DNA of 64,000 nt, from positions 1-64,000 of the IMG/VR virus record IMGVR_UViG_3300042892_005180. One strand, given 5' to 3'. The stretch comes from a virus (taxonomy: Duplodnaviria; Heunggongvirae; Uroviricota; Caudoviricetes). Position numbers and translations under genes: made by a program. This document shows positions 3,194-60,009 of the stretch, piece by piece (the stretch's first letter is position 1; every line of letters begins with the position of its first letter). The notes beneath the pieces were generated by a model, which searched no databases, was not told the DNA's origin, and was given only the letters and a program-made list of their open reading frames with translations.

Positions 3194-3597
3194 GAGACCT
3201 GATCGCAATCGTCGAGGAATGGTGCCACCAGACCAAGCACGGTGTTGACGTGTTCAAAAACCCGTCGCGCCAAGAACTCATGCGCGAAATACAAAAAGAC
3301 GAATATGGTCAGGTGCGCTGCATAGTCTTGCCAGAAGACCTGTACGTGTTCAGCACCGATATCATTCATCTCGCGTGTGCGGATTCTTTGGGCCTATCTC
3401 ACGATATCATTGGCAGAATCTTCCTTGACAAAAAAGGCCCGTTCATCAATCGCGATGATGACATCGCAACGGTGGGCAAGCCGGGTGGCTCAGAAAATCT
3501 TTGGAACATTCAGCAGCGGGAAAATGTTGACCGCTACTGCGTGGACCACCCGATTCTGTCTCGCCTCTATCCCAACTATGTCCTGGAGGTTCGCTGA
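3190..3597 (+). CDS. Leader-family protein (MRDLIAIVE..)
   Basis: Leader motif at the N-terminus. The start overlaps the upstream stop, indicating translational coupling. Confidence 0.65.
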   Translation: MRDLIAIVEEWCHQTKHGVDVFKNPSRQELMREIQKDEYGQVRCIVLPEDLYVFSTDIIHLACADSLGLSHDIIGRIFLDKKGPFINRDDDIATVGKPGGSENLWNIQQRENVDRYCVDHPILSRLYPNYVLEVR

Positions 3598-4376
3598 TGC
3601 ATCCCTGGACTCTTGAGAACGCGAAAGCGTTCGTCGCCGATCTTCAGTCTCGTGTTCGCGGCTACGACCTGGAGATCGTGGGCGGCGTCATCCGTAAGGG
3701 CTACAGCGACAAGGACGTCGATATCGTCCTGACCAAGAACGCCGAGTTCAGCCATGCCGATGAGGCGGCCGATGCGATGCAGGCCATGGGTGCCGCATTC
3801 AAGGGCCGCATCGACAAAATCCCCATGGAGGGATGGTTCCTCGCTGACGGTCGCAGGGTCGATTTCTTCTATGCGGAGAAGGGCGACAAGCGGAAGCGCA
3901 GGCCCGTCGTGGAGACCACGATGCGGGACCTCATCATGCTAGCCGAGTCGGCCTCGCTGCCAGAGTTCGTCTACCATGGCACCATCATGCGTCTCTGGAC
4001 TGCCGCGCACACTGGCTCCACCAATCTCTTCCTGGCAAGAGATCGCGATGAGGCGGAGAGCTACGCAGATCGTTCATACGAGAATGGTTGTCAGACCGAA
4101 CTCAACGACGAAGGACATTTCCCATACGACCCCGAGTCGACTCCCATCATCGTCGAGTTTCGTCTCGCCGATCTCATGGCTGATTCCACGCTGGCGTTCG
4201 ACTACGACTGGGGCTGGGAAGACGCGGCGGACGGAACGACGTGGCAGCAATCTCTGGCCGAGGTAGGCTCCTTCGTCGTCACCGGCTTCACGGACGGGCA
4301 CCGGAAACTTGGCAAGGTCGCGCTCGCCTATCCCGAGTATCACGCTGAGCAAATGGCATTGCTTTCACAGCCCTGA
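3597..4376 (+). CDS. Minimal Pol-beta-type nucleotidyltransferase fused in frame to an internal leader (MRDLIMLAE at nt 3921) plus an H-G-T-motif domain
   Basis: GGAGG-8-ATG start. The G[GS]x9DxD nucleotidyltransferase signature is GGVIRKGYSDKDVDIVL. The second half starts TTMRDLIMLAESASLPEFVYHGT, so this looks like a fusion of two cassette units. Confidence 0.6.
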   Translation: MHPWTLENAKAFVADLQSRVRGYDLEIVGGVIRKGYSDKDVDIVLTKNAEFSHADEAADAMQAMGAAFKGRIDKIPMEGWFLADGRRVDFFYAEKGDKRKRRPVVETTMRDLIMLAESASLPEFVYHGTIMRLWTAAHTGSTNLFLARDRDEAESYADRSYENGCQTELNDEGHFPYDPESTPIIVEFRLADLMADSTLAFDYDWGWEDAADGTTWQQSLAEVGSFVVTGFTDGHRKLGKVALAYPEYHAEQMALLSQP

Positions 4377-4392
4377 TCTCTATACTGCACCG

Positions 4393-4842
4393 ATGGATAA
4401 GATCGTCGGATATTCCCTCCAGCCCATCTATGGGCCAGATTCGAACACGACCAACTGTCTCGCGACTGGCGAACCTATTCCGAGTCGCATACTCGGCGAT
4501 GCCCTGTCATTGGAGTTTGTCCGCAAGCTCCGCGCCGAGCGGGAAATCAAGAAGTTCCTGGTCGCCTTGAGCGAGAAGATTCCCGAGTATGCTTGTCGCC
4601 ACGGTAGCTCGACTGACTATGACCGCAAACGCGACTATTGGTGGTTGAGCTTCAACGTCGGCGTTCAGGTTGTTGCTTCATACGACCCCGAGGTCGGTTT
4701 CGGTCTTCGTGAGCCCTTGGGCGAGGACGAGGAAGAACCCGACCAATACGACCCGTGGAGCCAGGAGCCCGTTCTCGTCACCAAGGACCCCGAGGAAGCC
4801 GCGCAGTTCTGCACTCAGTGGGTCCCCGCCCGCTACTGGTAA
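4393..4842 (+). CDS. hypothetical protein (acidic C-terminus)
   Basis: 150-aa ORF with a TATACT-like element 6 nt upstream of ATG (tctCTATACTgcaccgATG). Confidence 0.45.
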   Translation: MDKIVGYSLQPIYGPDSNTTNCLATGEPIPSRILGDALSLEFVRKLRAEREIKKFLVALSEKIPEYACRHGSSTDYDRKRDYWWLSFNVGVQVVASYDPEVGFGLREPLGEDEEEPDQYDPWSQEPVLVTKDPEEAAQFCTQWVPARYW

Positions 4843-5613: not shown

Positions 5614-6039
5614 ATGCGCTATCTCGACATCATCTGCGAGCAAGCCCCATCGGGCAAAGTTGTCAGCACCAGCATGCTGGTGAAACGCTACGGTGGCTCG
5701 TTCCTCCCGTATGCTCAACTCCCCGAGCCAGCGCAGAAAGCCCTTACGAGGTGGATGGTCTATGAGGGCGAGAACACCCACTACAAGCGGTCCAGTTACG
5801 GCTACGTCGAAGTACCCATTGATGACCTGATGAAGATCATCTGGAACCAGAATGGTTTCGATGACGGTGTCTCGTTCGAAGAGTTCTGGGGAAAACCGAG
5901 CGGTATGAACCCCAAGGTCTTCAACGAAGTCTGGCCCCTCATTTGGAGCAGCCAAGGGTGGGAAGACGGCATGCACCGACTTGGACACTATCGGAAGCTT
6001 GGGCTGAAGATGATTCCCGTCGTGGGGTCGAGACGTTGA
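5614..6039 (+). CDS. Leader-like protein (MRYLDIICE..)
   Basis: GTAAATAGgtgATG upstream. The N-terminus MRYLDIICE fits the leader pattern, ending I-x-E. Confidence 0.55.
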   Translation: MRYLDIICEQAPSGKVVSTSMLVKRYGGSFLPYAQLPEPAQKALTRWMVYEGENTHYKRSSYGYVEVPIDDLMKIIWNQNGFDDGVSFEEFWGKPSGMNPKVFNEVWPLIWSSQGWEDGMHRLGHYRKLGLKMIPVVGSRR

Positions 6040-6539
6040 TGCGCGACCTCATTGACCTCATCGAAGAAGCTCGGCCGATCACGTCCGTGGACGTCGATCA
6101 GCTTCCCGCATCCGCCAAAGCCGACATCCTGGACATGTTCCAGAGCGACAACGGACCACCGGCCTTTGAAGAGTTCTGGATGGCCGACAATGGCATCATG
6201 TCCTTCAACGACACCTACATTTCGCAGTTCATTTTCGGCGATGAAAACCTGAACGTTCAGGGCGAGGGCGGTGGGCTCTTCATGGTCAACTGCCTGACTC
6301 TGGACCCACGCGTCCTCTATAGTCCTCGCCGCTCAGTCTCTGATCTGGCCGTAGACAAATACGCCGCGATGACCACGAAGGCTCCTCCGGTCCTGGTCCG
6401 TAAGGTCTCGAAGGGATGGAAGCTTGTCGAGGGCGGTCACCGGCTCGCGGCTGCCGTGAAGCGGGGCGACACCTCTATCGACGCAATCGACGTCAGCGTC
6501 TTCTTCAACATGACGGTCGAGGATTGGCGAGAACTATGA
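6039..6539 (+). CDS. Leader-family protein (MRDLIDLIE..) with ParB/Srx-like nuclease motif
   Basis: Start overlaps the upstream TGA. KLVEGGHRLAAAVKRG matches the ParB/sulfiredoxin DGxHR..A box. Confidence 0.7.
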   Translation: MRDLIDLIEEARPITSVDVDQLPASAKADILDMFQSDNGPPAFEEFWMADNGIMSFNDTYISQFIFGDENLNVQGEGGGLFMVNCLTLDPRVLYSPRRSVSDLAVDKYAAMTTKAPPVLVRKVSKGWKLVEGGHRLAAAVKRGDTSIDAIDVSVFFNMTVEDWREL

Positions 6540-6757
6540 GACACCTGATCGACCTCATTGAAAGCACCATGCGACCCGAGACATTCGTGAATGAACTCGG
6601 AAATACCATCATGGTCGAAGTCACCGAGAAAGAAATCGAAGGCGTGGACGGCGTTCTCATTCACATTGAAGGGCCGACCTCCGAAACGGACAACCACGTT
6701 ACCCGCATGGAGGCTGAAAAGATTTTCGATCACCTGAAAGCGGTGCTGGGAAAATGA
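6536..6757 (+). CDS. Leader-family small protein (MRHLIDLIE..)
   Basis: ATGA overlap with the upstream gene and a leader at the N-terminus. Confidence 0.6.
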   Translation: MRHLIDLIESTMRPETFVNELGNTIMVEVTEKEIEGVDGVLIHIEGPTSETDNHVTRMEAEKIFDHLKAVLGK

Positions 6758-8097
6758 TGCGCCATCTCATTGATTTAATCGAAAGCGTAGACGAAATCGT
6801 CTGGCACGGTTCTCCAGACAACTTTGACATCACGCAAGCGGGTCCGATGACCCATTTCGGTTCGAAGAAATCTGCTGCTCATCGTATCCACACTAAGCGG
6901 GCGGAGTTGACGCTCGGTCGCCCTCGCTCCATCACGACCGGATATCTCTTTCCGGTGCGTCTTGCTATCCACAAACCCCTGACTATTAACGACCGGCAGG
7001 GATTGAGCCACACTCCATACAAGCTCACCGATATGCTCCACTACGACCTCAAGGCGATCTCGTCTGACGAGCGAACGGAGATCATGGCAGAGCAGTGTCG
7101 GTTCGAGAAAATCGCAGAAGTGCTCTCCCGTCATGGCTATGATGGTTTCGCATACACGAACGCGGTCGAGGACCCCGGCCACACCTCTTATGTGACTTTT
7201 CATCCCGGCCAGATCAAACCTGCGGGGCCGACTGAGACCTACGTCCAGCACGGTGCCTTCAACGGCAATCTTGTAGAATCGGTAGCGATGACACCAACGC
7301 AGGCGGTTTGCGCTCTGCGAGATGAATGGATAGCTGAGCAAAACACAACTGCTTACGCGATCAACAGAGGCCAGTGCTTCGAATTTGCCGACGCCTTGGA
7401 GGAAGCATACCCAGACCTCTTCGTATCTATCGAAATAGGTAATATTTTCCGCTACGAGGGCAAATACAACGACGACCCCGTTGGATTCGACGAAGCCCTG
7501 ATTGCCCAGCATTGGCCGAATATCAAACCATATCCGGGGCTGACCTGGGAACAGATGTTCCAAGACTGCGATCTGTCTTGGCCCGGTACGCACGGGTGGG
7601 CATTCTGCGCACAGACCGGCCTGTCCTATGATGTCGAGACCCCCGAGGGCGTCAGCAATCCTTTCGACCTCCCGTTTTTCGATTCCTACAAGGCTCATGG
7701 AGCGAAGGTGCTGGCAGCAAAGCCCGTCACCGAGGAGTTTATGGGTGGATTCGAGGTCAACAGCATCTATGGACCCCAGGTCGTCGAGGTCTACCACAAC
7801 CCTTCCCGCAAAGAATTCGACACCATCCGTGCGCAGCACAAAGCCGTCCGGGGTTTCATCGACGCCGACATCTATATCTGGGACGCCCATCTGGCCGACC
7901 ATGGGATGGTGGGCAATAAGTTCAACATGAGTGGCCTTCACGCCGAGTGGCGTGACGACGGCTACCTGATCATCAACTGGAACGATTCCTGGAACGGCGC
8001 CTATGGCTACGACGACTTCGACCACGTCAAGCGCAGCATTGAAGAGAACCCCCGGATGAAGCGTCTCCTGATCGGCTTCGAGGTTGTGCGATCATGA
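6757..8097 (+). CDS. Leader-family multidomain protein (MRHLIDLIE..) with a PARP-like W-H-G-S N-domain and GYDG domain
   Basis: IVWHGSPDNFDITQAG and TGYLFPVRLAIH resemble the PARP1 LWHGSRTTNFAGILSQG and TGYMFGKGIYFA blocks. It shares the GYDG..QIK domain with the 2450 gene. Confidence 0.65.
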   Translation: MRHLIDLIESVDEIVWHGSPDNFDITQAGPMTHFGSKKSAAHRIHTKRAELTLGRPRSITTGYLFPVRLAIHKPLTINDRQGLSHTPYKLTDMLHYDLKAISSDERTEIMAEQCRFEKIAEVLSRHGYDGFAYTNAVEDPGHTSYVTFHPGQIKPAGPTETYVQHGAFNGNLVESVAMTPTQAVCALRDEWIAEQNTTAYAINRGQCFEFADALEEAYPDLFVSIEIGNIFRYEGKYNDDPVGFDEALIAQHWPNIKPYPGLTWEQMFQDCDLSWPGTHGWAFCAQTGLSYDVETPEGVSNPFDLPFFDSYKAHGAKVLAAKPVTEEFMGGFEVNSIYGPQVVEVYHNPSRKEFDTIRAQHKAVRGFIDADIYIWDAHLADHGMVGNKFNMSGLHAEWRDDGYLIINWNDSWNGAYGYDDFDHVKRSIEENPRMKRLLIGFEVVRS

Positions 8098-8208
8098 AGT
8101 TTGTGCCGAGGAAAATCCCTCACCTGATCGCGACCAAGATCGAAGACGTGTGCCCCATGCAGCCGCCTCCGAAGCCCGTCAAGCCGCGTCGTGACTGGCT
8201 GCACCCCG

Positions 8209-8277
8209 TTTACCCTATACGGTAAAAACGGGCGTCTAGGGGCCCTTCAGGGCCGGAATTTACCCTATACGGTAAAA
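8209..8277. repeat. Two copies of a 19-bp palindrome TTTACC-CTATAC-GGTAAA(A), about 50 bp apart, in a 93-bp intergenic gap
   Basis: Direct sequence observation. Each copy is a perfect 6-bp inverted repeat around CTATAC, which is the classic two-site operator geometry. Confidence 0.6.
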
Positions 8278-8403
8278 TCAGACGTCGGTGCGCTCTTCGA
8301 TGTTGCCGAAGCGGTCCACGCGAAGCATCGGAAGCACGTAGCCATCGGTCTCGTCCTTCGCAATTCCTTCGGCCATCTTGAACGTCGTGGGGCCAACGGC
8401 GAC

Positions 8404-8673
8404 GTGGCCGCCGCTTCTGGGGATGATTGCGTGTCAACGGCGGCTACCAGATTTGATCTCAAAGTCGAAATCGTTGGTGGCGTTGCCAAGCGGGGGTTCA
8501 GCAATAATGATCTCGACCTGTTGGTCACAGGAGGAGAGAACGCTGACCTCGAAGCCTTCCTCAACAGCCTGCAACGTCTGCAAATCAGCCATGAGCCCAT
8601 GTCAGTGCCCGGTGGGCCGATAGCGAGACTTTTCCTTGCCGATGATCGGGAAATCGACATTTTCTACCGTTGA
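8404..8673 (+). CDS. Minimal nucleotidyltransferase paralog; start uncertain (possible GTG)
   Basis: VEIVGGVAKRGFSNNDLDLLV ... DIFY parallels the 3597 nucleotidyltransferase (LEIVGGVIRKGYSDKDVDIVL ... DFFY). There is no in-frame ATG after the palindromes. It may be a pseudogene or start at an alternative codon. Confidence 0.35.
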   Translation: MAAASGDDCVSTAATRFDLKVEIVGGVAKRGFSNNDLDLLVTGGENADLEAFLNSLQRLQISHEPMSVPGGPIARLFLADDREIDIFYR

Positions 8674-8697
8674 GCCCAGCAGGGGGTTTCAGATAGC

Positions 8698-30369: not shown

Positions 30370-30703
30370 GACTATATGCTTTAGTAGTGGCCTTTTGAAG
30401 GATTACGGCGCGATCTGCCGACCGGCCTTCCAATCTTTGTCCAGATGGTCGAGCAAGCTCTAACCAACTATCCACTAGAACCGCAACTTGTATACCGCAT
30501 GCTGTGGCGGTGACGCAGAGTGCTACTCAGCAGTCCTTCCTACGTGATGCCCTGTCAAAGGCCTCTTAAGGGTTCGACCCCACCGTTCTCAGTTCTACCG
30601 ACGATCATGGCCTTGCGAGCTTCCGACCGACCCGATTGGACCGAAGTCCTCAGGTATTTGGTTCCTTACACACTCTACCGGACTGAGCTTTTGCGTTTTT
30701 CAA

Positions 30704-30778
30704 GTGAAATCAGAATCGAACTGATGACCCTCAGCTTTGAAGGCTGATGCTCTACCGTTGAGCTATTCGCAATCCATC
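30704..30778 (-). ncRNA. tRNA-like element (D-arm GCTCAACGGTAGAGC, anticodon stem-loop with UCA, T-arm ATCAG-TTCGATT-CTGAT); the acceptor stem does not pair
   Basis: Folded by eye from the reverse complement. The 5' TTGCGAA cannot pair with the 3' TTCACTT, so this is either a pseudo-tRNA or fragment, or it was misread. Confidence 0.3.
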
Positions 30779-37362: not shown

Positions 37363-38067
37363 TTATTCGACCGACGTGTGGTAGGTCTCGACGCGGTTCA
37401 GGAACGAATCCAGGTGCCGTTTGAAATCGTCCCCTTCGAGAATGAAGGTCTTGTACTGAAGATCACGGGCGGCCATGAAGATCACACCGACTTCAATTTC
37501 AGTGCTGAACAGTTCATTGTGAGCGAGCGCGTAGGCGGAAATCTGATCGAAGTAGTCGGGAATCATATCCCGCGTCCGCATCTTCTTTGCGTTCTTGAAG
37601 TCCATGATGGCGGGGCGGCCTTTGTATACCCCCACAACGTCCGTAGTGCCCGCGTAGAGGCCTGGGAAGAAAAGTGGGGTCTCGATGCCCCAGACCTCTT
37701 CGAGGCCGTCCAGCCCCTCTGTAATGATCGTGTTGGCCATTCTCTCGGCCATTTGTCGGATGAGGTTTGAGCCACGGGGACGCTCGCGTCCTTCGAGGTA
37801 GCATTCCATGTGTTCGTGGACGAGACTGCCGAGAGCGGCGCCCTGATCACGTGCCTTCTCGGCTTTGGCTTCGCCGACCCATGCCTTCCACTGTTCGAGG
37901 CCGGACTTGTCGGCGGTCGCGGAAAGGATGGTGGTCACGCTCGGGAGGGCCTCACCATCGGGCGTGACGTAGTGGCGAACGCCGTCAGGGCGAGTCTGCC
38001 GGTCAAGAGTAGGATAGGTGTAGAGGGGATTGATCGGCGGGGGTGCCGGGAGGTTTTGAACGATCAT
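37363..38067 (-). CDS. PD-(D/E)XK-family nuclease (phage exonuclease/Cas4-like fold)
   Basis: Motifs VTTIL...D-x-x-K (DVVGVYKG..IMDFK). Inferred by eye. Confidence 0.5.
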   Translation of the reverse strand: MIVQNLPAPPPINPLYTYPTLDRQTRPDGVRHYVTPDGEALPSVTTILSATADKSGLEQWKAWVGEAKAEKARDQGAALGSLVHEHMECYLEGRERPRGSNLIRQMAERMANTIITEGLDGLEEVWGIETPLFFPGLYAGTTDVVGVYKGRPAIMDFKNAKKMRTRDMIPDYFDQISAYALAHNELFSTEIEVGVIFMAARDLQYKTFILEGDDFKRHLDSFLNRVETYHTSVE

Positions 38068-38108
38068 CCCTTGAGTATAGTTTGGGGTCGGTTCAGAAAC
38101 CTAAATGA

Positions 38109-42213: not shown

Positions 42214-42236
42214 GAGTAGGTCACACAGACTAGGAA

Positions 42237-42266
42237 GCCCCCGGTTCGCCGGGGGCTTTTTTTATG
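42237..42266 (+). terminator. Rho-independent terminator (GCCCCCGG-ttcg-CCGGGGGC plus T7)
   Basis: aagcccccggttcgccgggggcttttttt. Confidence 0.75.
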
Positions 42267-52995: not shown

Positions 52996-54670
52996 CGTCT
53001 CGCTCGGCCTGCTTGTCGAGTTCTTTCAAGTAGAGGTCGTAGCTGCGACGATTCAGCAGCGAGGCCGAGAACAGAGGCAAGAGTTTATTCTCGTCCCACA
53101 GAACCTCTGATTTCTGGATGGTGAACATCGCGTACTCGTTGAAGTTATACTTTTCTGCGTTCTGGCCAATGTTTTCTACGAAGGAATCGAGTTCAGAGAA
53201 CGTCATGTCGTTCTCGACGATGTTGTCGAGTTCATATGTCGCGATGACGATTTGGTCTTTGTCGTTGACCTCGGCGCCCATCGCGTATGCATAGGCGAAC
53301 TCGAACGCCTTGCAGCGTCCTTCGAAATATTTTTTGCCGAAGTATTTCGAGGCGACAGGGAAGCGGTCCTCGGCGACGATGAACTCATTGGAGTCGATCT
53401 GGAATTCAAGATCGTCTCCACCGAATAGGTTTCCCTGCTGGGTGGGCGTCACGCCGAACTCGTGCTTGGCTATCTCGGCGAGGACATCGGGTCTGAGTTC
53501 CTTGAGGAACCCCATGAGGGTTTCCACAAACGTCCCGTAGGAATCCGTGACCTCGTTCTCCTCCAGGTATTCGAGAACGTCTTCATCCTTGACCGATACG
53601 GCACGGTAGAGTTTCTCGTCGCAGATGAGGTCTTCTCCGTCCCAGAAGAAATATTTGTCGTTCACTTCGTTGATGGCAGAGACGATCTTGTCGGCCGTCT
53701 TGTCCGTCAGTCCTTCTGCGCGATACAGTTCCTCGGCATTCATAAGCGTGGGCTTGAGTTCGAGGAGTTCATCCGCGACATCTTCATCCAGGTCCGAAAT
53801 CGAGAAGTTGTTGGCCGCCAAATAACCGCCCCCCTTGATTCCTGCGATCATGTCGAGGCGCAGAAGAGGGATGATGTATTTGTGGTATTGGGGCGCCGGT
53901 TTCTCGTTGCCGCGCCCCTTCATCTCACCGAGATATCCGTCAGAGTGCAGAATGAAGGTCAAACAGGGATGCCATTTGCCGGTGTCGGTCTGGCGGCGCA
54001 GAGACAGAATCTTTTGTGAAGTCCCCGCAGCAGGAGAGTTTCCGCAGTGCCCCATAGCTTTCGCCTCGGCATCGCATGACGCCTCATTCAGGTTGAACCA
54101 CACGTAGCCGTCCTTGAAGTCCATGATGACTTCATGGTGATCAAGCGCGTCGGTGTATTGGCTCTGTTTCTTCTTCCAGTCGTCTTCGGCCAGAGCCATC
54201 TGGCGATTGTAAATGTTGGGCGAGATGATGCCCATGTCGGGCACCACGGCGCGAAGAGCCGGGATGGAATCGTAGTGCTCGATGACGTCGATGTAGTTTT
54301 TCGCGTCTCGCATGTCCCCAAAGTCCTGGAGGAGGACGGTGGTGTTGATCTCCCATTTCGCGGCCAGTTCCTTGAGGAATTTGTTCTCGTTGGGGTCCTG
54401 GCCATTTGCCTTGCAGGCTCGATTTATGACGTGAACCTTGGCCAAACGGAGGACCCAGGTGATGCGATCTTTCTTGCTGCCCCGCTCGACGCCTTGCTCA
54501 TCGACTTTTCGGCCGAGTTTGGTCCTGCATTGCTCGATGATGGTCTGCACCCAGTTGGAGATGGATTCGCGCTCCTTGGGGTCCTTGACCGTAGACAGGA
54601 TGCCGTTGAACTGGTCCGTGAAGCTCTGAGCCTCGAAGAGGTTTTCCATCAAGGTCATGAGATCGCGCAT
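52955..54670 (-). CDS. large leader-like protein (MRDLMTLMENLFE..), 571 aa
   Basis: ATAAATACaccATG upstream. The leader variant ends L-F-E. Confidence 0.6.
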   Translation of the reverse strand: MRDLMTLMENLFEAQSFTDQFNGILSTVKDPKERESISNWVQTIIEQCRTKLGRKVDEQGVERGSKKDRITWVLRLAKVHVINRACKANGQDPNENKFLKELAAKWEINTTVLLQDFGDMRDAKNYIDVIEHYDSIPALRAVVPDMGIISPNIYNRQMALAEDDWKKKQSQYTDALDHHEVIMDFKDGYVWFNLNEASCDAEAKAMGHCGNSPAAGTSQKILSLRRQTDTGKWHPCLTFILHSDGYLGEMKGRGNEKPAPQYHKYIIPLLRLDMIAGIKGGGYLAANNFSISDLDEDVADELLELKPTLMNAEELYRAEGLTDKTADKIVSAINEVNDKYFFWDGEDLICDEKLYRAVSVKDEDVLEYLEENEVTDSYGTFVETLMGFLKELRPDVLAEIAKHEFGVTPTQQGNLFGGDDLEFQIDSNEFIVAEDRFPVASKYFGKKYFEGRCKAFEFAYAYAMGAEVNDKDQIVIATYELDNIVENDMTFSELDSFVENIGQNAEKYNFNEYAMFTIQKSEVLWDENKLLPLFSASLLNRRSYDLYLKELDKQAERDAKRAAEQAQGTKS

Positions 54671-54677
54671 GGTGTAT

Positions 54678-55109
54678 TTATCGCTTACGCGGCTTTGGGA
54701 CCTTGGGCGGTTTCAGGGCCGCGCGAGCAGCGGCGCGGGCGGTCGCCTCGGCCGAAGTTTTCTTCACATGACAGGGTACGCACAGGGTCTGGAGGTTGGG
54801 GAGCTTCCAGTATTCGAGATCGCCGTTGGATTCGATGAGGGGCTGGACGTGGTCGAGTTCCCACGGCACGTGGAAATCGTCGCAGACGGTCGGGCAATGC
54901 GCACAGTGGCCCTGGTCTCGCTTCCAGACGGCCTTGCGGGTCTCCTGGGGCCAGTAGATGACCTTGTAGGCGCGGACGCACGGCTTGTGCCAGTTGGCCC
55001 GGCTCCGCAACCGACCCTTGTCGTCCAAGATGATCTCACCGCAGAACCGGCAGTATCCCTTGGGGGCGTTGTTGTAGTGGATGGGTTTCGGGGGCTTGCG
55101 ATGCAGCAT
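54678..55109 (-). CDS. HNH homing endonuclease
   Basis: ELDHVQPLIESNGDLEYWKLPNLQTLCVPCHVKKT. CTAAATAGgggATG upstream. Confidence 0.7.
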   Translation of the reverse strand: MLHRKPPKPIHYNNAPKGYCRFCGEIILDDKGRLRSRANWHKPCVRAYKVIYWPQETRKAVWKRDQGHCAHCPTVCDDFHVPWELDHVQPLIESNGDLEYWKLPNLQTLCVPCHVKKTSAEATARAAARAALKPPKVPKPRKR

Positions 55110-59760: not shown

Positions 59761-60009
59761 TCACACTGGCATATAAGCCATCCTCATAGTATAGTTGTCC
59801 GTTTCTTCTTTGTAGAGGAACAAACGAACGCGAGTGTCTTCTTCCGGGAGATGGCCGCCGCGAACGCGGACAGTGGCAATTCCGTGGCCCGAAGCGGCGA
59901 CAAAATCATCCACCATTTCGTACCAGAAATCAGGATAGACGGCACGAAGCCCAGGGCTCAGCACCGCCATATCCTCAATGGCCTCGATGGTCATTACGAC
60001 CAGGGCCAT
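59761..60009 (-). CDS. hypothetical protein
   Basis: 82-aa ORF. The TAA stop of the upstream small ORF abuts its ATG. Confidence 0.4.
   Translation of the reverse strand: MALVVMTIEAIEDMAVLSPGLRAVYPDFWYEMVDDFVAASGHGIATVRVRGGHLPEEDTRVRLFLYKEETDNYTMRMAYMPV

Follow-up and report, generated by a model that had tools for sequence, protein, structure and literature searches.

Two identical 19-bp near-palindromes in a large phage match a putative operator class of plasmids and may be protein-binding sites

Why does a large phage carry, at a single place, two identical copies of a short and nearly palindromic sequence? The question is raised by a 64,000-nt stretch (called the window here, meaning the whole of it) of an uncultured large phage with a G+C content of 57%, which encodes a ribonucleotide reductase, a DnaB-like helicase and a tRNA, and whose helicase shares 52–56% identity with the helicases of Sinorhizobium phage Phosso and of the PA5oct group of Pseudomonas jumbo phages. 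Across the whole window, TTTACCCTATACGGTAAAA occurs as two plus-strand copies, at 8209–8227 and 8259–8277, 50 bp apart from start to start; in shuffles the expected number of matches is 0.00, with zero matches even when three mismatches are permitted. Both the spacing and the GGGGCCC between the copies (8239–8245) had been given exactly in the initial annotation of the locus. The perfect 19-bp palindromes that it described turned out to be imperfect: when the 18-mer with halves TTTACCCTA and TACGGTAAA is compared with its own reverse complement, 16 of the 18 positions are symmetric and one C/C clash remains, at positions 7 and 12. Across the window there are many single 9+9 palindromes that contain one mismatch. 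The exact duplication of the 19-mer is the sole feature that goes beyond chance, and its near-palindromic quality by itself is not. The features of the locus are as follows.

8094–8225, plus strand: ORF43, 43 aa, whose start overlaps the stop of a 447-aa ART-PolyVal-like gene (ATGA)
8209–8227, no strand assigned: site 1, TTTACCCTATACGGTAAAA, an 18-bp near-palindrome (arms TTTACC and GGTAAA, core nTATAn) plus one A
8209–8308, no strand assigned: two 50-bp units (8209–8258 and 8259–8308) that resemble an old tandem duplication
8241–8254, no strand assigned: G+C hairpin GGCCC-TTCA-GGGCC, a 5-bp stem between the two sites with no adjacent T-run
8259–8277, no strand assigned: site 2, a 19-mer identical to site 1, abutting the TGA stop (8278–8280) of a minus-strand gene fragment
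8278–8433, minus strand: small-gene fragment, with the 77-aa P0008 and the 66-aa BAJUN_01150 of Brevundimonas phage Bajun as homologues
8431–8439, no strand assigned: head-to-head junction of two 5′-truncated genes, which creates an artefactual 160-aa ORF (8191–8673)
8431–8673, plus strand: 5′-truncated nucleotidyltransferase-like gene, 89% identical to the 104-aa P0002, with homology from GTG 8431 exactly

The two 50-bp units were compared in register. They agree at 19 of 19 positions in the 19-mer, at 13 of the next 21 and at 2 of the last 10. The 13 matches beyond the 19-mer are themselves more than expected (binomial P = 5e-4; empirical P at lag 50 = 8e-4), and the unevenness between 19/19 and 13/21 is significant (Fisher 0.004). 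Since the 19-mers stay identical while the adjoining flanks have diverged, the pattern would fit selection on the sites and argues for their maintenance, hence for a function.

Site 1 covers the final five codons and the TAA stop of ORF43, which has a normal coding pattern (G+C at the three codon positions 0.59/0.41/0.75). ORF43 was considered as the binding protein and is probably not: it has no match to a Pfam family, and the C-terminal half is proline-rich. To the right of ORF43 the gene finders conflict, some calling the 160-aa plus-strand ORF and others 32- and 52-aa minus-strand ORFs. Judged by homology, the 160-aa ORF is a real gene in its C-terminal half only, and its first 80 codons are artefactual, running antisense to a real gene fragment. 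No homologue of these 80 codons was found among 5.8 billion proteins, the opposite strand at 8281–8433 has a homologue in a 77-aa protein (61% identity), and codon-position G+C favours the minus strand over 8278–8376. The two repeats, which had been placed inside a 93-bp intergenic gap (8098–8190), in fact fall within the mechanical ORF 8191–8673, with the first repeat overlapping the end of ORF43. The idea that they control an alternative-start gene fails with those first 80 codons.

What is left of the two genes to the right is truncated. The nucleotidyltransferase-like ORF lacks an ATG start, as had been noted before. P0002 (104 aa), its relative encoded on contig L008, begins MREFMNLMEAVVWTKEQADSFVAR..., and the window copy aligns to it only from GVTG..., i.e. 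from GTG 8431, so that about 27 codons are missing. Absent are the 27-codon leader MREFM... and the TAAATA start signal, which the intact relative in L008 keeps; a paralogue at 3597–4376 has the same conserved N-terminal stretch as P0002. The minus-strand fragment is without roughly its first 8–10 codons: an in-frame TGA (8434–8436) stands where the homologues have the F of MRF, and no start codon lies upstream of that TGA. At the other end it stops 3–5 codons early, reading TDV and then TGA (8278–8280) where the homologues go on with DFK.... We read the head-to-head fusion at 8431–8439 as a deletion scar. The homology break at about 8278–8281, beside site 2, is a second junction, where the 3′ end of the minus-strand fragment has been lost. 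The earlier suggestion of a recombination junction is thus supported, at these two places rather than at the coordinates first given. In consequence, the sites are placed at the left border of some 205 bp of non-coding sequence (8226–8430), have 3′ ends on both sides and do not precede an intact gene; the nearest rightward start codon is GTG 8431 of the truncated gene, 154 bp away. For annotation, it follows that the gene finders' 160-aa ORF has arisen artefactually from the fusion of two gene fragments; public gene calls carry this spurious product as protein P0001.

The surroundings contain a further anomaly. A gene for a GIY-YIG/Eco29kI-like endonuclease (9375–9872, minus strand) has a GC3 of 0.42 compared with 0.68–0.79 in its neighbours, which suggests that it was recently acquired. 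Beside it, the intergenic 9873–9940 is an A+T-rich divergent promoter region with the palindrome TATAGTTTAGAGGGAAAACTATA. Lying 1.1 kb from the scar, the endonuclease gene could be a driver of local recombination.

Such a setting would suit a non-functional relic, that is, a plasmid-type operator patch which entered a fast-changing accessory region by illegitimate recombination, was duplicated locally and is now roleless among decaying gene fragments. The scar is visible, with two genes truncated and fused head-to-head at 8431–8439 and the 3′ end of the small gene lost beside site 2; the sites are unique in 81 kb, and no cognate regulator is encoded there; their spacing and position are unlike the plasmid layout described below; related phages have the nucleotidyltransferase and 447-aa homologues in other contexts; and the endonuclease gene of foreign codon composition is close by. 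Against a relic stands the comparison of the two units. Neutral decay would not leave the 19-mers identical while 8 of the 21 adjoining bases differ (Fisher 0.004, as above), barring chance similarity of the flanks or recent conversion. The locus is also unchanged in L005, L006, L041 and L042, which come from several samples, a weak argument as these contigs are identical throughout. On balance we regard a relic as a strong rival, though less likely than not.

Direct evidence on conservation was sought among relatives of the phage. The same phage sequence is present in several metagenome assemblies, including a 119.5-kb Logan contig and an 84-kb JGI/NCBI contig, and DNA read across the site pair in L005, L006, L041 and L042 is identical in all of them. 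As these four contigs are identical everywhere, they give no information on conservation of the sites. Megablast of 6500–10500 against INPHARED gave no match, and tblastn and related-locus searches returned only the distant, non-syntenic L001–L004 (42–52% identity) for the neighbouring genes and nothing for the 447-aa gene. When the 160-aa ORF, the 447-aa protein and the minus-strand peptide were used as queries in homologue searches, the 160-aa ORF led to P0002 on L008 and one further useful relative, P0004 on L009, was recovered; one of these searches returned only the query itself. None of the relatives found is a diverged one that spans the locus, and the motif is missing from the fragments L008 and L009. 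Within the window and 17 kb of flanks (81 kb), no other TTTACC-N5-7-GGTAAA with up to two mismatches was found. The initial annotation had held that a 19-mer unique to this spot and not conserved in relatives would speak against a regulatory site; this applies in part, the 19-mer being unique in 81 kb and absent from the two relatives' fragments.

The phage's own start signal was considered as well. Window-wide, TAAATA followed by 4 nt (rarely 5–6) and ATG is a near-universal gene-start signal, often with GGTCAA ahead, and 21 of the 30 occurrences of TAAATA in the window stand directly before an ORF of at least 50 aa (examples at 2000–2016, 2436–2452, 9927–9943 and, on the minus strand, 54670–54686; in L008 at 565–583 and 912–930). 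It is similar to the T4 late promoter TATAAATA, and its position would make the mRNAs nearly leaderless. This TAAATA-N4-ATG arrangement is dominant; the CTATAC core of the 19-mer is probably not a start signal of the phage. The similarity proposed earlier between this core and TATACT-type −10-like elements does not hold up either: the clear gene starts with CTATACT ahead of them number just two (4393 and 38067), and in the 19-mer the corresponding letters are CTATACG. In its own right, aCTATACT is a rarer second motif, placed 6 nt before the ATG at both of these gene starts, and may mark a promoter class distinct from TAAATA; CTATACT also precedes one 46-aa ORF of doubtful reality (coordinates of the motif: 4374–4395 and 9885–9897, plus strand; 38067–38086 and 59788–59800, minus strand).

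A related observation concerns the beginnings of the proteins. Many unrelated proteins share an N-terminal peptide MRDLIxLIE, MRHLIDLIES or MREFMxxxE (positions 2014, 2450, 6039, 6536, 6757, 9941, 10891, 12829, 14594, 54670 on the minus strand, and others), among them proteins with ART-PolyVal, nucleotidyltransferase and ParB-like domains, and the relatives in L008 carry it too. Such a shared peptide might serve as a signal for targeting or packaging, or it might simply have arisen through recombination at the start cassette that these genes have in common.

Position between 3′ ends invites another explanation, in which the three hairpins (the two 19-mers and the G+C hairpin) would act at the RNA level, where transcripts converge, by stopping transcription in both directions or by serving as a processing site. 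The element does lie between the 3′ ends of ORF43 on the plus strand and of the minus-strand fragment, and the 101-nt region is predicted to fold into a three-hairpin junction on both strands (−40.6 and −40.8 kcal/mol; z = −2.6 and −3.3). However, this fold is only modestly better than shuffles, and no terminator-like site was found on either strand. The stems are short (6-bp A/U-rich and 5-bp G+C) and adjoin no U-run: for a terminator, a G+C stem of at least 5–6 bp followed by a U-run was looked for, and the locus has a 5-bp stem followed by GGAAUUUAC on the plus strand and CCUAGACG on the minus strand. The clear terminators of this phage have G+C stems of 8–10 bp (e.g. 42234–42259), much stronger than the hairpin at 8241–8254. 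Moreover, the minus-strand gene is a fragment without a start, and on plasmids the same sequence lies over promoters upstream of genes, not at transcript ends. No Rfam family matches at the locus (Rfam 15; best 16 bits, E = 3.8), the sole match above gathering threshold in the window being the tRNA at 30701–30772. A role at the RNA level is therefore rather improbable in our judgement.

That tRNA, on the minus strand, is the only one in the window, and its anticodon UCA reads UGA. Its length of 72 nt shows that this is not a true selenocysteine tRNA. Many genes of the window, including those with ATGA overlaps, plainly terminate at UGA, so that the tRNA might act in suppression or recoding.

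Searches outside the phage were more informative. An exact scan with the 18-mer gave 0 matches in IMG/VR, 13 single matches in unrelated taxa in GTDB genomes, where about 17 are expected by chance, and 12 matches in JGI metagenomes, 4 of which led to a plasmid motif. Matches to both sites together were absent from IMG/VR, JGI metagenomes and GTDB genomes, and when plasmids and phages (PLSDB, INPHARED) were searched by BLAST with the 101-bp locus or a 30-mer, only chance matches came up. The four metagenome contigs, L014, L016, L020 and L023 (G+C 0.55–0.56), contain further TTTACC-N6-GGTAAA sites, in pairs 32–34 bp apart. L020 has an impB/mucB-type polymerase gene; L023 encodes a large polyvalent protein, and its neighbouring gene is 86–90% identical to Pseudomonas megaplasmids. 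Two annotated plasmids whose sites have perfect arms, pPsy0462c of P. syringae and pAeme3 of Aeromonas media, were reached by BLAST from L023.

In these plasmids the sites keep company with a gene. Plasmid pPsy0462c has exactly 3 sites in 50 kb, compared with 0.15 expected, and all are placed around one gene annotated as PapB/FocB family: of the three, one stands 49 bp before the ATG of this regulator and the other two form a pair at its stop, in front of the next ORF. The regulator, WP_055004694.1, scores 48–51 bits against PF03333 (PapB), for which the cut-off is 29.4 bits, and regulator genes of this family in the plasmids encode 82–84 aa. The same regulator gene and layout are present in L016 and L023, and in pAeme3 a site pair adjoins a remnant of the regulator gene. 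Rather than marking transcript ends, the sites cover promoters ahead of genes. The promoter-proximal one occupies the spacer of a sigma-70-like promoter and contributes the −10 element with its right arm: in pPsy0462c it is inside a promoter-like match TAGACT-16-TAAAAT, and TTGCGA-type −35 hexamers, read by eye, precede the proximal sites in L020, L023 and L040. From 19 sites on plasmid-like contigs and annotated plasmids, the consensus is TTTACCnTATAnGGTAAA, i.e. TTTACC-n-TATA-n-GGTAAA, and the spacings within pairs are 32, 33, 33, 33, 34, 34 and 34 bp.

This site class is best read as the operator of a small PapB-family regulator on plasmids, because of its dyad symmetry, its pairing, its overlap with promoters and a position that would permit the regulator to control its own gene. 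Searches of the literature for the half-sites and for PapB-type plasmid repressors found no publication on this operator, and the motif seems previously undescribed. The arrangement recurs in Pseudomonas-, Aeromonas- and Stenotrophomonas-type plasmids, where a PapB-family gene is bracketed by one site upstream and a pair at its stop (L039, which is pPsy0462c, 5905–6242; L040, which is pAeme3, 6006–6056; also L016, L020, L023 and L014), and it looks like an undescribed self-regulating operator system. In practical terms the plasmid motif is perhaps the more useful result, as a ready-made candidate operator for a widespread small plasmid regulator.

Do the phage sites belong to this class? Both fit the consensus at 16 of 16 informative positions, and about 2e-5 consensus sites are expected by chance in 81 kb, a match that is partly circular as the plasmid motif was discovered by searching with the phage sequence. 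Four of the 19 consensus sites were found through identity to the phage sequence, and the other 15 were not so selected. Arms and TATA core are the same, four metagenome sites equal the phage site over 18 bp, and both groups share dyad symmetry, two nearby copies and a location in mobile DNA of G+C 0.55–0.57. The arrangement differs. Members of a plasmid pair differ from each other in the core and are 32–34 bp apart, whereas the phage copies are identical, 50 bp apart, and have a G+C hairpin between them. Plasmid sites lie over promoters beside a regulator gene; those of the phage are found at 3′ ends within a scar, and the 81 kb contain no regulator. On plasmids the proximal site covers a sigma-70-like promoter 35–80 nt upstream of a gene start. 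In the phage, the right arm of site 2 and the two following bases do read TAAAAT on the plus strand (8272–8277), the same arm that forms the −10 element in the plasmid promoters, but there is no −35, the next rightward start is 154 bp away, and no sigma-70-like promoter was matched at 8100–8450. By sequence, we consider it fairly secure that the phage 19-mers are members of the plasmid class. The proposal of a dimeric repressor/operator pair thereby gains indirect support, since the same sequence class occurs in pairs over promoters beside a plasmid PapB-family gene; its five-turn geometry does not, as the plasmid pairs are spaced at 32–34 bp. Plasmid contigs and window share mobile-element gene types (ART-PolyVal and polyvalent-protein domains), which makes exchange of DNA between phage and plasmids plausible. 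The 19-mers are thus probably protein-binding sites shared with or borrowed from plasmids.

The explanation that we favour, tentatively and at somewhat less than an even chance, is that the 19-mers are operator-class binding sites which were duplicated in place and whose binding protein acts in trans. A DNA-binding dimer would recognize each 19-mer, and the likeliest candidate is a small helix-turn-helix regulator of the PapB family (KorA/TrfB-like). One site would have been duplicated within a unit of about 50 bp, after which the sites were kept identical and the rest of the unit diverged. The protein would act in trans because it is not encoded in the 81 kb examined: with a profile of three regulators, no PapB-like ORF was found in the window, L041 or L043, 81 kb in all of a jumbo phage whose genome is larger. 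Its gene could lie in another part of the phage genome or on a co-resident plasmid; among deposited phages, PapB-like genes were no more than weak matches, in phages of 40 kb. The most plausible effect of binding would be a block of rightward transcription out of the ORF43 operon or repression of a weak rightward start at TAAAAT (8272–8277). What is observed directly is the sequence, its duplication, the genes around it and its agreement with the plasmid motif. We infer the remaining steps: that the plasmid motif is the operator of a PapB-like protein, that such a protein binds in the phage, and what its binding would bring about.

The pair would be accounted for differently if it were a miniature mobile palindromic element or a site of centromere-like (parS) or iteron type. 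At the two ends of the 68-bp unit stand sequences that repeat each other directly as well as in inverted form, some proteins of the window have weak ParB_N similarity, and a partition site had been proposed in the initial annotation. Iterons usually come in runs of three or more at a spacing of about 22 bp, and only two copies exist here, at a single locus in 81 kb. A mobile element would be expected in multiple dispersed copies, yet no copies with the same internal sequence were found in IMG/VR, JGI metagenomes, GTDB genomes, PLSDB or INPHARED, and no target-site duplication can be defined. The arms resemble neither the parS consensus TGTTTCACGTGAAACA nor the KorB site TTTAGCSGCTAAA, no parA/parB pair adjoins the sites, and the one weak ParB_N match is 36 kb away. 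The partition-site proposal accordingly loses ground, also because the plasmid sites lie over promoters. We judge these readings very improbable.

Binding in vivo would mean that a jumbo phage and plasmids of Pseudomonas and Aeromonas type use a common regulatory word. This would point to exchange of genes or signals between phage counter-defence islands and plasmid regions with similar polyvalent-protein domains, and would give a hint at the host range of the phage. A bolder version holds that the phage carries operators for a plasmid PapB-family repressor and that the shared operator couples the jumbo phage to co-resident plasmids by regulatory cross-talk, which we judge quite improbable. 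Were it true, the plasmid repressor might silence or insulate part of the accessory (counter-defence) gene block of the phage, or incoming phage DNA might titrate the repressor and thereby de-repress plasmid genes. In either case a virulent jumbo phage would be linked with conjugative plasmids.

The closest match to the phage sites is the plasmid class described above; in kind, they resemble the operators of broad-host-range IncP-1 plasmids, namely O_A (GTTTAGCTAAAC) for KorA and O_B (TTTAGCSGCTAAA) for KorB, the latter a ParB-type protein. Like the present class, these are short A/T-ended palindromes over or near promoters of plasmid backbone genes. They are served by small plasmid-encoded helix-turn-helix repressors of KorA/TrfB type, which is also the candidate type of binder here, and the regulator controls its own gene, as it would in the plasmids with the present sites. 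Compared with these operators, however, the arms are TTTACC and not TTTAGC and the site is 18 bp long instead of 12–13 bp, and unlike the KorA/KorB system there is no sign of a global regulon for this class. A looser parallel is offered by PeSLs, promoter/stem-loop cassettes that mediate gene shuffling in T4-type phages. They too are short repeated regulatory sequences which border small accessory genes in a fast-changing region, at recombination junctions. PeSLs are present in many repeats per genome and carry the early promoter of the phage itself, whereas here two copies occupy one locus, and the phage's own repeated start signal (TAAATA-N4-ATG) differs from the 19-mer. In kind, the phage sites are a known type of operator palindrome in an unexpected replicon, and not a new kind of element.
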